DNA of 64,000 bases from Klebsiella phage vB_KoxiM_BaqKoxi. A program made the position numbers and the translations under genes. The notes under the pieces are model-generated. The model searched no databases. It was not told the DNA's origin and was given only the letters and a program-made list of their open reading frames with translations. Each line of letters begins with the position of its first letter. Position 1 is the first letter of the stretch. Shown piece by piece: positions 46,418-53,719 of this stretch. Location: sequence record PQ741797.1. One strand, written 5' to 3'.

Positions 46418-46430
46418 GTTGCTCCGCAAC
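46418..46430 (+). promoter_or_regulatory. candidate vRNAP hairpin promoter (5-bp stem, 3-nt loop; template-strand loop GGA)
   Basis: gttgc-tcc-gcaac; G at +11 from loop centre (46435); 39 nt upstream of the ATG at 46474; same gc-tcc-gc core as the two other sites. Confidence 0.4.
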
Positions 46431-46473
46431 CTATGGACATGTCGTCCATATCACTCAACCTTGGAGCTATACA

Positions 46474-46797
46474 ATGACTACTACTGCATCTGTACGTATG
46501 ACCGCAGGAACTTTACTCGGTACAGTAAATGAAGCAGCAACTACTGTAGCTGATACCTTTGGTACTGCTACTAAAGCTGTAGGTATGCTTAACCGTTATG
46601 TCACTAAGATGTCTGACAAACAGATTATCCGTGACAAACTGGAGATGCATGAATTCACAGCGAAGCTGGTAGAAGAAACAGCTATGCAAGAAGCTGTAAG
46701 ACAGAAATCTATCAAAGAATTCTGCAAAGATGAACAGAATGCTGAACTCTATCAACAAGCATATGACCGTCTGCGCGATATCCTGTCTGAAGACTAA
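46474..46797 (+). CDS. hypothetical early protein (107 aa)
   Basis: ATG with GGAG SD downstream of the hairpin promoter candidate. Confidence 0.45.
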   Translation: MTTTASVRMTAGTLLGTVNEAATTVADTFGTATKAVGMLNRYVTKMSDKQIIRDKLEMHEFTAKLVEETAMQEAVRQKSIKEFCKDEQNAELYQQAYDRLRDILSED

Positions 46798-46899
46798 ATC
46801 AAAATTGGCACTCTCCGGAGTGCCAAACCCTTTGAATCAGATAGTTCAACTATTTATTCAAAAAGTAGGAAACTACTTTCAACTTTAAGGATAGACAAA

Positions 46900-47106
46900 A
46901 TGCCTCAGTTTAAGATTGTAGAAACAGATAACTATGGTGGAGATTATCCGAATGAAAAATTCGTAGAGAATATTCCCTACCTGACAAGTAAGCTAAAGGC
47001 AGAACAGATAGCAGAAGCAATCAATAGTGCAGTTCCTGCATCACATGACAGATTCTGGAAAGTGGTTGAAATGCCTTATGAATTACAACCTGGTTTTGAA
47101 CCATAA
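46900..47106 (+). CDS. hypothetical early protein (68 aa)
   Basis: ATG start. Confidence 0.35.
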   Translation: MPQFKIVETDNYGGDYPNEKFVENIPYLTSKLKAEQIAEAINSAVPASHDRFWKVVEMPYELQPGFEP

Positions 47107-47224
47107 GCCTTAACAAAAACCAACTAATCCAACGGATAGATAAGGAACAAAAATGACTACCATCACTACTAATGCCTATACCAAAGTAATCAAAGATTAG
47201 ACTACCAAATCTGGTTTACGTGCA

Positions 47225-47551
47225 ATGATTCTCCTCGTAAGAGGAAGTCATCACTGTGGTTATGTAGAATTACCAGAACGTCTGGGCAAGCCTGGCTACG
47301 ATGAGAGTCCTATCATGGAACTCAATGTTCATGGTGGCGTTACATATGCAGGGCATCTGGATGAAATGGATGGTAAGTATGTAGTCGGATACGACTGTGC
47401 TCACTATGGTGACTTAATGAAATGCCCGGCAGAACTGAAAGGAACTGCTATGGAGTCATCCTGGATGTATAACGATGGTATCTGGCGAGATGAAGCATTC
47501 TGCACTAATGAGTGCGAATCACTCGCTAAGCAAATCTCCGAAATTAAGTAA
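47225..47551 (+). CDS. hypothetical early protein (108 aa), Cys/His-rich
   Basis: ATG start. Confidence 0.35.
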   Translation: MILLVRGSHHCGYVELPERLGKPGYDESPIMELNVHGGVTYAGHLDEMDGKYVVGYDCAHYGDLMKCPAELKGTAMESSWMYNDGIWRDEAFCTNECESLAKQISEIK

Positions 47552-47568
47552 AGAGGGCAGTAATACCA

Positions 47569-47739
47569 ATGACTAAACAAGAGTTACTGGAACAGTTCGA
47601 AGAAACTGTTCGGCAACAAGAACAGTATAATTCTGACATTCACCATTATGGAGAATCAGATATCGATATCACATCTGATACCTTAGATGCTCGCTACGAA
47701 AGGCTCAAACAGGAGCTACTAAATGTATTAGGAGAGTAG
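47569..47739 (+). CDS. small acidic protein (56 aa), not in the ORF track
   Basis: ATG with AGAGGG SD; fills an otherwise empty 190-nt gap; its stop overlaps the next ATG (TAATG pattern). Confidence 0.35.
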   Translation: MTKQELLEQFEETVRQQEQYNSDIHHYGESDIDITSDTLDARYERLKQELLNVLGE

Positions 47740-47741
47740 TA

Positions 47742-47939
47742 ATGCCACTAACTAAACAAGAAAAGCGAAAGCTAAAGAGGCTGATTACAGCCTACAAAAA
47801 CTCTGCAATAGCAGATAGTTGGGCTGGTTCAGCAGACCCAGAGGATTATGAATCCCTCGTAGAAAGTTGCAAAGCAGCAAAGAAAAAGTTGGAAGACTAC
47901 ATCACAACGTTAACCTACTCAGGAGAGAACAATGCCTAA
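47742..47939 (+). CDS. hypothetical early protein (65 aa)
   Basis: ATG start. Confidence 0.35.
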   Translation: MPLTKQEKRKLKRLITAYKNSAIADSWAGSADPEDYESLVESCKAAKKKLEDYITTLTYSGENNA

Positions 47940-48147
47940 ATATGTGTGCATCAAATCAAAGATAGAAGAAGCTGTACCTGAAGGGACGGTAATCATAGCA
48001 ACACCTGTTGGTGCTGGCCGTATTTTAGTAGTACAGGACAGTGATTTAACAGTAGGCGAATACGCTGATATGCCCTACTTCCAACGTGGGCAGGAACTAC
48101 CACTCATTGGGAGTTTATGGCACTGGGAAGAATTAAAAACTGCTTAA
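47932..48147 (+). CDS. hypothetical early protein (71 aa)
   Basis: ATG with GGAGAG SD. Confidence 0.4.
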   Translation: MPKYVCIKSKIEEAVPEGTVIIATPVGAGRILVVQDSDLTVGEYADMPYFQRGQELPLIGSLWHWEELKTA

Positions 48148-51717: not shown

Positions 51718-51718
51718 T

Positions 51719-51997
51719 ATGAAGGTTATTACTTTCCCTACTTATAGAGTTATTCATTACATGGAACAAGAAATCGAGGTTCCATTATGGGTAAGGTATG
51801 TAGCCGCATATCCTGGTAATTATGGCAAGCTAGTATCTTTAATAGGATTTGCCAGTAAGCCTCGTGTAACTAAGAATGGAATATGGCTCATACCTAAAAC
51901 ATTCAAAGACCGTCAGCAAGAGGAAATAGGTGTTATCAGACACTCTGACATTAACAAAACCAATTTCCACACTACACTACGGGGACCATTCAAATGA
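51719..51997 (+). CDS. hypothetical protein (92 aa)
   Basis: ATG start. Confidence 0.35.
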   Translation: MKVITFPTYRVIHYMEQEIEVPLWVRYVAAYPGNYGKLVSLIGFASKPRVTKNGIWLIPKTFKDRQQEEIGVIRHSDINKTNFHTTLRGPFK

Positions 51998-52314
51998 AAC
52001 AAATAGCAATTATCCACGACAATGGATATGCAGATATTGATAAGATGATGAAATCCATCGATTACGTAAGTAATTACAGTAATACATTTGATGGAGACTT
52101 CACCTTAATAATTCATGAAGATTCAGCCCTGCTTCCTATTATTGCAGAGTCAGGTTTACCCTATGAATCTGTTAAAGAATTCATGGAAGAACCAGACGTT
52201 ATGATTGCATTTTCAACCTGGGATGATGGCACATTCGCCAAAGATTCATTAATGAAGCAATGGATGGCCCGTAAGCCCATATTTGCATTTCAATTAGCTA
52301 GGAAGGTGGACTAA
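51994..52314 (+). CDS. hypothetical protein (106 aa)
   Basis: ATGA overlap. Confidence 0.35.
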   Translation: MKQIAIIHDNGYADIDKMMKSIDYVSNYSNTFDGDFTLIIHEDSALLPIIAESGLPYESVKEFMEEPDVMIAFSTWDDGTFAKDSLMKQWMARKPIFAFQLARKVD

Positions 52315-52661
52315 TGCCTAACAAAGTTATTAAACACCCTCAATTGTGGGTTATACGGCATATACCATCAGGTAAATGCATACCAGAGCCTAGCTCTGTA
52401 GGGGAATCCCGTTATACCTGGGTAGAACCAAGTGATACAGGTATTCCTCGTATGTTCCGTAGTGAGGACTCGGCTAAGAGAGCATTAACTCAATGGCTCA
52501 GAGGCAGACACCATCTGGAAACAGATATAGAAGATGCCTGCGAATGGGGCAAATCATACGAAGTAGTGGTTGGCACATACGCAGAACCTGTATCTACCCG
52601 CGAAAGGGAAGAAATGGAAGTAGTATTTGTATTCATACACGCAAGCAATGGAGAGCAATAG
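52314..52661 (+). CDS. hypothetical protein (115 aa)
   Basis: ATG start. Confidence 0.35.
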   Translation: MPNKVIKHPQLWVIRHIPSGKCIPEPSSVGESRYTWVEPSDTGIPRMFRSEDSAKRALTQWLRGRHHLETDIEDACEWGKSYEVVVGTYAEPVSTREREEMEVVFVFIHASNGEQ

Positions 52662-52662
52662 T

Positions 52663-52851
52663 ATGTCAAATAAAGTATGTACCTGTGGTAAAGGCTATGC
52701 ATCCATTTGGGATAACAAATGTAGTAATTGCCGAACCAGTAAAGAACAGATAGCTCATCAGTATGCATTAGACCAAGTACGTGAGGTTAATCCTGAAACT
52801 ATGGAAGATGCCATTAAATTCTATAAAGAGTTGAAAAGGGTATATAAATGA
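52663..52851 (+). CDS. small zinc-finger-like protein (62 aa)
   Basis: CTCGKG...CSNC; GGAGAG SD. Confidence 0.35.
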   Translation: MSNKVCTCGKGYASIWDNKCSNCRTSKEQIAHQYALDQVREVNPETMEDAIKFYKELKRVYK

Positions 52852-53228
52852 AAGAGATATTCGTATTCGGTAGTAACCTCGCTGGTATCCATGGTGCTGG
52901 TGCAGCTAAGACTGCATATAAGAAGCATGGTGCTCGATGGGGTATGGGCGTTGGTCACTATGGTTGCAGCTATGCTATTCCAACCAAAGACCAAAACATT
53001 AAGACCATGGCCTTAGAGGACATAAGAACCTTCGTAGAAGGCTTCATCCTTTATGCAGCCTCACACCCGGAGTGGAACTTTAAGGTCACCAGAGTGGGCT
53101 GTGGCCTAGCAGGATTGGATGATGCTGTTATGGCATCTATGTTCAAACACGCAACTGGTAACTGCTCGTTCGACCTGGCATGGCAAAGCTATCTTGGTGA
53201 TGAGCATACCTATTGGGGGGCATTCTAA
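52848..53228 (+). CDS. hypothetical protein with Gly-rich N-terminal motif VFGSNLAGIHGAGAA (Rossmann/SLOG-like?)
   Basis: 126 aa; motif read from the sequence only. Confidence 0.3.
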   Translation: MKEIFVFGSNLAGIHGAGAAKTAYKKHGARWGMGVGHYGCSYAIPTKDQNIKTMALEDIRTFVEGFILYAASHPEWNFKVTRVGCGLAGLDDAVMASMFKHATGNCSFDLAWQSYLGDEHTYWGAF

Positions 53229-53428
53229 TGACCAAACAAGAAAGGAATTTAAACGCCGCCTTGGGTGTTTATATCCATGGATGTTTTCAGTTAATTGAAG
53301 AGGCTATTCGTGCAGGCAAACCGGATGCTGAAATAATAGATGTACTATTTGGCGAGAGCAGCATCAATGTAGCCAAACAAACCATTTCAGCAGCAAGAGC
53401 ATATATTGCGAGGGAAAACGATGAGTAG
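53228..53428 (+). CDS. hypothetical protein (66 aa)
   Basis: internal ATG. Confidence 0.3.
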   Translation: MTKQERNLNAALGVYIHGCFQLIEEAIRAGKPDAEIIDVLFGESSINVAKQTISAARAYIARENDE

Positions 53429-53699
53429 CTATGAAGAATTATATGGTGCTCACGTAGTCCATAAAAGCAAGGTATTTGCTGAACTGTATTCAACACTTCA
53501 GAGCATGATTAAAGCTCGAACCAAGGCAGGTTATGTTAACGGTATTACCTACATAGTAGTGCCTGAACAATTTGCTAATGTGCTTTGGATAAGGGATACA
53601 CCTTGCATCAAAGTAAAAGTATGGCCCTCTAAGGGGCGTTACGCAAACACACAGTATATCCCTGGCAGACTGTATATCAGTTTTGAAACCAAACGTTAA
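53421..53699 (+). CDS. hypothetical protein (92 aa)
   Basis: GAGGGA SD. Confidence 0.35.
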   Translation: MSSYEELYGAHVVHKSKVFAELYSTLQSMIKARTKAGYVNGITYIVVPEQFANVLWIRDTPCIKVKVWPSKGRYANTQYIPGRLYISFETKR

Positions 53700-53702
53700 G
53701 TA

Positions 53703-53719
53703 AAGCAGCTCCGCTGCTT
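53703..53719 (+). promoter_or_regulatory. candidate vRNAP hairpin promoter (7-bp stem, 3-nt loop) upstream of the RNAP II genes
   Basis: aagcagc-tcc-gctgctt; G at +11 (53722); 28 nt upstream of the ATG at 53750. Confidence 0.4.

Follow-up and report, generated by a model that had tools for sequence, protein, structure and literature searches.

Hairpin promoters for a virion RNA polymerase predicted in the early region of an N4-like Klebsiella phage

Introduction

Three short DNA hairpins in the early region of Klebsiella phage vB_KoxiM_BaqKoxi are supported, by sequence comparison, as early promoters of this N4-like phage, orthologous to the promoters P1, P2, and P3 of phage N4. We analyzed a stretch of 64,000 nucleotides (nt) from this phage (sequence record PQ741797.1), to which we refer as “the window”; the phage belongs to the genus Kaypoctavirus or close to it. 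A preliminary description, made from the sequence alone, had pointed to three perfect hairpins with a TCC loop, each closed by G-C pairs and followed by a G 11 nt beyond the loop center, and had proposed that they are promoters for a virion RNA polymerase (vRNAP) that map the early transcription units. All three hairpins are present as described, and we put the probability that they are functional vRNAP promoters at about 0.93. The proposal is upheld because of four things: orthology with N4 P1–P3, both in flanking sequence and in downstream genes; the presence of all sequence determinants known from N4; the conservation of promoter-reading residues in the cognate polymerase; and covariation in the hairpin stems. 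The motif, its uniqueness, the orthology, the polymerase residues, and the covariation were computed for the window; the mechanism and the transcript 5′ ends are predicted from work on N4.

Promoter determinants at the three sites

The rules with which we compared the sites come from a 2015 review (PMC4496689) and from cryo-electron microscopy (cryo-EM) papers of 2026. N4 vRNAP promoters are conserved from −17 to +1, with a GC-rich heptamer centered at −11 and inverted repeats on both sides (PMC4496689). Extrusion of the hairpin needs a G:C pair that closes the loop, as well as a loop with a 5′ G and a 3′ A; the polymerase specifically recognizes −11A/G, −10G, −8G, and +1C, and its contact residues are K114, R119, W129, D901, R904, and K849/K850 (PMC4496689).

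Sites 1, 2, and 3 (Table 1) are inverted repeats with 5, 7, and 7 bp in the stem, i.e., within the 5–7 bp of N4-type promoters, and with a 3-nt loop. G-C pairs close every loop, giving the three sites a common heptamer, GCTCCGC, around the TCC loop. On the template (−) strand, the loop reads 5′-G(−10) R(−11) A(−12)-3′ at each site, in all cases as GGA, and the recognized form of site 1 would be GTTGC-GGA-GCAAC. The −9C:−13G closing pair and the −8G are likewise found in all three templates, and folding the template strand as DNA gives the expected hairpin. Lastly, there is a sequence match to the template +1C, 11 nt past the loop center, at every site. On the non-template strand this position is a G, preceded by T and followed by a second G. 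By the N4 rule, the predicted transcript starts are G 46435 for site 1, G 48171 for site 2, and G 53722 for site 3. The location is also that of N4-type early promoters: the sites lie at the left end and on the strand of the early genes, preceding gp1, gp2, and gp15/gp16, respectively.

The numbering can be verified with an N4 promoter. The P2 oligonucleotide of a 2026 cryo-EM structure contains GAAGC-GGA-GCTTC (PMC13492108), which is the sequence that the preliminary description had given for N4 P2, rightly, and which is also present in the N4 genome. When the central loop G of this oligonucleotide is numbered −11, a template C falls at +1, 11 nt from the loop center, confirming the numbering used for sites 1–3.

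Uniqueness of the motif

Within the 64-kb window, GCTCCGC is confined to sites 1–3, with three copies on the + strand and none on the − strand. We modeled chance occurrence with 400 first-order Markov simulations of the window. GCTCCGC hairpins with a stem of at least 5 bp appeared with a mean of 0.05 per window, both strands together, and never more than once; with a G at +11 also demanded, the mean was 0.0075. If any 3-nt loop is allowed, the window has 99 perfect hairpins with stems of 5 bp or more, meaning that the specific motif is exceptional and a hairpin as such is not.

The hairpin type had been said to be restricted to the early region, and a scan for TCC-loop hairpins confirms this for the heptamer class, which is enriched (three vs. 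0.05 expected) and confined to sites 1–3. The other TCC loops are at chance level: three further TCC-loop hairpins (5657–5673 on the + strand and two on the − strand) all lack the heptamer, with 1.8 expected by chance. In these counts, the TCC loop is that of the strand read, and the − strand cases read GGA on the + strand. The complete genome of Klebsiella phage KP8 agrees; its scan takes in the ~9 kb that the window lacks. Five TCC-type heptamers occur in it, each with a stem of at least 5 bp: those of the four early promoters, plus that of the second P1 carried by the right terminal repeat. Elsewhere in KP8, eight GCTTCGC heptamers form stems no longer than 2–3 bp.

Two individual candidates were set aside. 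The hairpin at 5657–5673 (CATTACC-tcc-GGTAATG, a perfect 7-bp stem) lies inside the N4SSB homologue, has a template −8C, a non-G +1, and no heptamer, and was not found in KP8 or N4; we take it as a chance occurrence. A GCTTCGC near 46664 on the − strand, inside gp1, was rejected, having a 4-bp stem and a T at +1. A looser scan of the window (loops T[CT]C, C/G closing pair, stems of at least 4 bp) returned no more candidates with the full motif, and a search of positions 44000–58000 against Rfam at gathering thresholds gave no match.

Orthology with the N4 promoters

Within the first 9 kb of the N4 genome, our scan found GTTGC-ttc-GCAAC with the loop at 95 (P1), AAGAAGC-tcc-GCTTCTT with the loop at 564 (P2), and AAGCTGC-tcc-GCAGCTT with the loop at 4553 (P3). 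These hairpins are ordered as sites 1–3 are and precede the same genes: gp1, gp2, and gp15/gp16. Transcription of gp1, gp2, gp15, and gp16 by vRNAP is stated in PMC13434306. Site 1 differs from P1 in its loop, TCC rather than TTC (template GGA rather than GAA), and in one or two flanking bases, and is otherwise alike; both lie inside a terminal repeat, ~107 nt from the left end. A single compensatory stem change separates site 2 from P2. Site 3 differs from P3 by a compensatory change from T:A to A:T, and the downstream sequence GGTAATTAA is common to both. The N4 flanks are recognizably homologous to those of sites 1–3 (for example, ...tacacGTTGC...ctatGGACATGT, ...atGGATGAnGTnATGCATCC, and ...tGGTAATTAA). 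Shared by the N4 promoters and sites 1–3 are −11G, −10G, −8G, the −9C:−13G pair, +1C, and a template purine at −1.

The distances from the transcript start to the ATG are 39, 10, and 28 nt in the window vs. 47, 10, and 38 nt in N4. The preliminary description had placed a Shine-Dalgarno (SD) sequence and an ATG within ~30–40 nt of each hairpin. This is the case for site 1, with a GGAG SD and ATG 46474, and for site 3, with a GAGGA SD and ATG 53750. It does not hold for site 2, where the ATG that had been favored, 48280, is 109 nt downstream.

The predicted cognate polymerase

An N4-type promoter presupposes an N4-type vRNAP, and the window encodes one in a giant open reading frame (ORF). This ORF keeps the −11 recognition element (K114/R119/W129), the fingers residues K849/K850, the specificity loop (D901/R904), and the catalytic residues D559 and D951; one substitution among the contact residues is weighed below. 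From its sequence, the encoded enzyme would be expected to read the three hairpins.

KP8 and other relatives

The early region of the window is ~91% identical to that of Klebsiella N4-like phages such as KP8 and VLCpiP4b. Morozova et al. listed four putative KP8 promoters in 2019, found by comparison with N4 (PMC6950046 Table 1): P1 ACGTTGCTCCGCAACCTATGGA, P2 AAGACGCTCCGCGTCTTATGGA, P3 GGGCTGCTCCGCAGCCTTTGGA, and P4 AAGCAGCTCCGCTGCTTGTGGG. The regulatory features of the KP8 RefSeq record (NC_048700) label them as early. Over 22 nt, no difference separates KP8 P1 from site 1 or KP8 P2 from site 2; between KP8 P4 and site 3 there is one mismatch, at +3. The genomic setting is shared as well. The sequences described here were thus already published as KP8 early promoters; naming them as such in this genome is correct annotation and offers nothing new on mechanism, the hairpin promoters of N4 having been characterized both biochemically and structurally. 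KP8 has four promoters and the window three. In KP8, an extra small gene, gp004, is under the control of P2, and gp2 has a promoter of its own, P3 (GGGCTGC-TCC-GCAGCC).

Early promoters with hairpins have been predicted in other N4-like phages, including LUZ7 (PMC3715699), and those of Pseudomonas phage LUZ7 have been mapped by ONT-cappable-seq (PMC9163698). Like sites 1–3, the LUZ7 promoters combine a 3-nt-loop hairpin with a G start downstream of it, and they are used by a co-injected giant vRNAP. LUZ7 differs from the window in its nine early start sites, in its stem length (4 bp or more), and in the distance of the start from the hairpin center, 13–14 nt as opposed to 11 nt in the window and in N4.

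We also collected 15 IMG/VR loci encoding relatives of gp15, with their upstream early regions. In these relatives, down to ~58% gp15 identity, the early strand bears one to four heptamer hairpins (GC-T[CT]C-GC), always followed by a G at +11. Aligned in register, 25 distinct promoter sequences, selected for a perfect stem of at least 5 bp, show that pairing is conserved in the stem and sequence is not. The two pairs nearest the loop are invariant. At pairs 3 and 4 from the loop, AU, UA, GC, and CG all occur, none of the 25 is unpaired, and 14–15 of the 25 are changed on both sides. The stem covariation score is 0.52, compared with 0.11 in shuffles and 0.05–0.10 with the partners slid. As read from the alignment, the informative part of this evidence is the variety of pair types at orthologous promoters.

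Counterevidence and alternative explanations

Several observations weigh against sites 1–3 being functional promoters. First, K267 of the intercalating hairpin (mini-vRNAP numbering) is replaced by Asn in the giant ORF, the sole contact residue to be changed. In N4, Lys267 and a second lysine of the intercalating hairpin melt 7-bp promoter stems at their base. Second, the site 1 hairpin folded alone is thermodynamically unremarkable (z = −1.15), as expected for a 5-bp stem. Third, the KP8 promoters were themselves called by similarity to N4. Fourth, because pairing at the inner five stem positions was a selection criterion of the covariation set, the percentage of paired positions is partly built in.

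Three other explanations of the hairpins can be considered. Site 2 begins 5 nt past the stop codon of an ORF ending at 48147, and site 3 begins 4 nt past that of an ORF ending at 53699; such positions would suit transcription terminators, or hairpins for RNA stability, at the end of the upstream genes. However, no T-run follows any of the sites, the downstream sequences being ctatgga, atggatg, and gtggtaa; a terminator scan finds canonical TTCG-loop terminators elsewhere in the region and none at sites 1–3; and site 1 has no gene before it inside the terminal repeat. Moreover, the strict conservation of the strand-asymmetric loop and heptamer and the conserved +11 G have no role in termination. 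We regard this explanation as very improbable.

Palindromic arms 3 bp apart are also typical of sites bound by dimeric proteins, and the inverted repeats might act as double-stranded operators for a phage or host regulator, with no hairpin being extruded. A dimeric reader would be expected to conserve the arm sequence rather than the pairing, yet the arms can vary in sequence provided that they still pair, and the invariant parts are the non-palindromic center, TCC, and its orientation. Hairpin extrusion and direct vRNAP contacts are, by contrast, known from N4 (PMC4496689). An operator seems to us just as hard to sustain as a terminator.

The idea that such inverted repeats arose by chance in the AT-rich DNA between genes, which could appeal to the abundance of generic small hairpins, is already refuted by the motif counts given above together with the confinement of the motif to one strand, to intergenic DNA, and to orthologous positions in N4, KP8, and the IMG/VR relatives.

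Proposed mechanism

If sites 1–3 work as their N4 counterparts do, early transcription would proceed as follows. After injection, host gyrase would supercoil the DNA, and each inverted repeat would extrude as a cruciform. The host single-stranded DNA-binding protein would then melt the non-template arm, leaving intact the template-strand hairpin, with its 5–7 bp stem and 5′-GGA-3′ loop; both steps are modeled on N4 biochemistry. The co-injected vRNAP would bind the template hairpin, stacking on −11G and reading −10G, −9C, and −8G, and RNA would start with GTP opposite the template +1C at the three positions predicted above. The resulting units would express gp1, gp2, and the RNA polymerase II (RNAPII) subunits gp15 and gp16, which together would supply the machinery for middle transcription.

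Genome layout and early transcription units

The window has the N4 layout, circularly permuted. The giant polymerase gene and the late genes occupy the − strand up to ~43.7 kb; small + strand ORFs follow, then the physical left end, and then the rightward early genes. Base 1 of KP8 corresponds to window position 46328, which is at or near the physical left end. Coordinates of the features are collected in Table 1. The TTCG-loop hairpin behind gp16 is likely the end of the site 3 unit.

Table 1. Features of the window that bear on early transcription
Feature	Position	Strand	Remarks
Giant virion RNA polymerase gene	10999–21411	−	74% identity to N4 gp50 over 2472 aligned residues
Terminal-repeat equivalent	46328–46731 (about)		Equivalent of the KP8 404-bp direct terminal repeat containing P1; one collapsed copy in the window
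Site 1 hairpin, GTTGC-TCC-GCAAC	46418–46430	+	Perfect 5-bp stem; orthologue of N4 P1 and KP8 P1
gp1 orthologue, 107 aa, first gene of the site 1 unit	46474–46797	+	82% identity to N4 gp1; phrog_5020
Site 2 hairpin, AAGACGC-TCC-GCGTCTT	48152–48168	+	Perfect 7-bp stem; orthologue of N4 P2; predicted gp2 promoter
Structured 5′ region of the gp2 transcript	48171–48283	+	Predicted: 5′ hairpin, ACCGAC hairpin, possible AUG-covering helix
gp2 orthologue, single-stranded DNA-binding cofactor of RNAPII	48181–48675 (start 48181 or 48280)	+	74.5% identity to N4 gp2
Terminator-like TTCG-loop hairpin after gp2	48685–48706 (to 48716 in a wider delimitation)	+	GGGACTCCC-TTCG-GGGAGTCCT, then T-run TTTATTTTT; homologous N4 site at 1079–1100, after gp2
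Site 3 hairpin, AAGCAGC-TCC-GCTGCTT	53703–53719	+	Perfect 7-bp stem; orthologue of N4 P3 and KP8 P4; predicted promoter of the RNAPII genes
gp15, RNAPII subunit, site 3 unit	53750–54565	+	73% identity to N4 RNAP1; phrog_2166
gp16, RNAPII subunit, site 3 unit	55082–56296	+	74% identity to N4 RNAP2; phrog_2051
Terminator-like TTCG-loop hairpin and T-run after gp16	56444–56465 (to 56475 in a wider delimitation)	+	N4 counterpart at 6680–6705, after gp16

Upstream of site 1, a run of small + strand ORFs at 44443–46256 lies at the right end of the physical genome, where KP8 annotates ten hypothetical ORFs. No vRNAP-type hairpin was found in front of these ORFs, so that their expression would have to come from another polymerase or from read-through. 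Downstream of site 1, the predicted transcript begins with GGACAUGUCGUCC (GGACATGTCGTCC), at 46435–46447, a small hairpin at the 5′ end. This hairpin has a perfect 5-bp stem in N4 and KP8 (GGACA-TGT-TGTCC), and one mismatch weakens the copy in the window.

A chimeric junction at site 2

Site 2 aligns to two places in KP8 (locus L002 of our set). The first, 871–983, corresponds to P2 through +3; the second, which aligns from the heptamer on, is 1230–1330 and corresponds to P3 and gp2. Indeed, positions 48152–48185 are an exact chimera, in which the hairpin of KP8 P2, together with the flank upstream of it, runs on into the sequence downstream of KP8 P3. The junction falls within TGGA at the predicted start site, and the KP8 P2-gp004 cassette is precisely absent from the window. 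Among close relatives, there are three or four promoters, and the hairpin stem types are at odds with the gp2 phylogeny. Together, the exact chimera, the variable promoter number, and the distribution of stem types suggest recombination at the promoter motif. That the hairpin and start-site motif serves, besides its promoter role, as a crossover point for moving or deleting early-gene cassettes bounded by promoters, and that the gp2 leader (see below) serves as a translational operator for gp2, is a tentative idea drawn from these sequences, and we consider it rather unlikely as a whole.

A predicted structured leader in the gp2 transcript

The 5′ region of the predicted gp2 transcript has several potential RNA structures. 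At its start, 48171–48188, a 5-bp hairpin is predicted (GGAUG...CAUCC), with a compensatory change from GC to UA in loci L009 and L010. Further along, between the site 2 start and ATG 48280, a hairpin at 48214–48248 presents an invariant ACCGAC loop (48229–48234). It occurs in 10 distinct versions among the relatives, including the distant loci L037 and L038, with an equal fold and differing stems (z = −2.3 to −5.1). Owing to G-U pairs, the sense strand folds far more stably than the antisense strand in five of the 10 versions. The maintenance of the fold and the sense-strand stability conferred by G-U pairs point to an RNA element in the gp2 transcript. These results are from folds of the individual sequences; RNAalifold on a MAFFT alignment gave the outer stem only, as differences in loop length shift the register. 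A possible helix between 48209–48216 and 48275–48283, in which CCUUUUGU would pair with ACAAAAUGG, would cover AUG 48280, and its pairing is invariant. Lastly, one relative (L032:1330–1500, IMGVR_UViG_3300045988_012650) has a 33-nt insert in the gp2 leader that keeps the reading frame and consists of two mini-hairpins with GAA loops (GTCGC-gaa-GCGAC and CCATAC-gaa-GTATGG).

The start codon of gp2

The preliminary description had argued that the 168-aa ORF downstream of site 2 really starts at the internal ATG 48280. It was right to discard the first ATG: 48169 cannot be the gp2 start, because the predicted transcript start at 48171 falls inside that codon. It overlooked a further in-frame ATG at 48181, the equivalent of which is used in the annotations of N4 and KP8, and between 48181 and 48280 the evidence is split.

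Several lines of evidence favor 48280. The block TCTGGAGAGTACAAAATG is identical, including at third codon positions, in N4, KP8, and the closer relatives that carry it (loci L021–L036). This ATG is preceded by an invariant SD, the phrog_4099 profile starts at the methionine of 48280, and several distant homologues have no upstream in-frame ATG or GTG. The AUG at 48181, for its part, would be only 10 nt from the 5′ end of the transcript, has no SD, and would sit in the loop of the predicted 5′ hairpin.

Other features favor 48181. An ATG or GTG is kept at this position in 16 loci, with the frame open. Three independent indels in the stretch all have lengths divisible by three (−3, −6, and +33 nt), and the 8–12 nt before the ATG vary freely. 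Furthermore, the substitutions are conservative hydrophobic swaps, with the second codon position the least changed. A codon-position test on this N-terminal stretch of gp2 showed no excess of third-position changes, which would suit non-coding sequence, but the pattern also fits a hydrophobic peptide with a least-changed second position. Both sites may be used, yielding two forms of gp2, the longer one with a hydrophobic N-terminus.

Implications

For this genome, the three hairpins define the early transcription units, three in number, and where their 5′ ends are likely to lie. They also lend support to the idea that the product of the giant ORF is a working N4-type virion RNA polymerase. 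Beyond this phage, the chimeric junction at site 2 and the structured leader of gp2 provide small leads on the evolution and regulation of the early region in N4-like phages.

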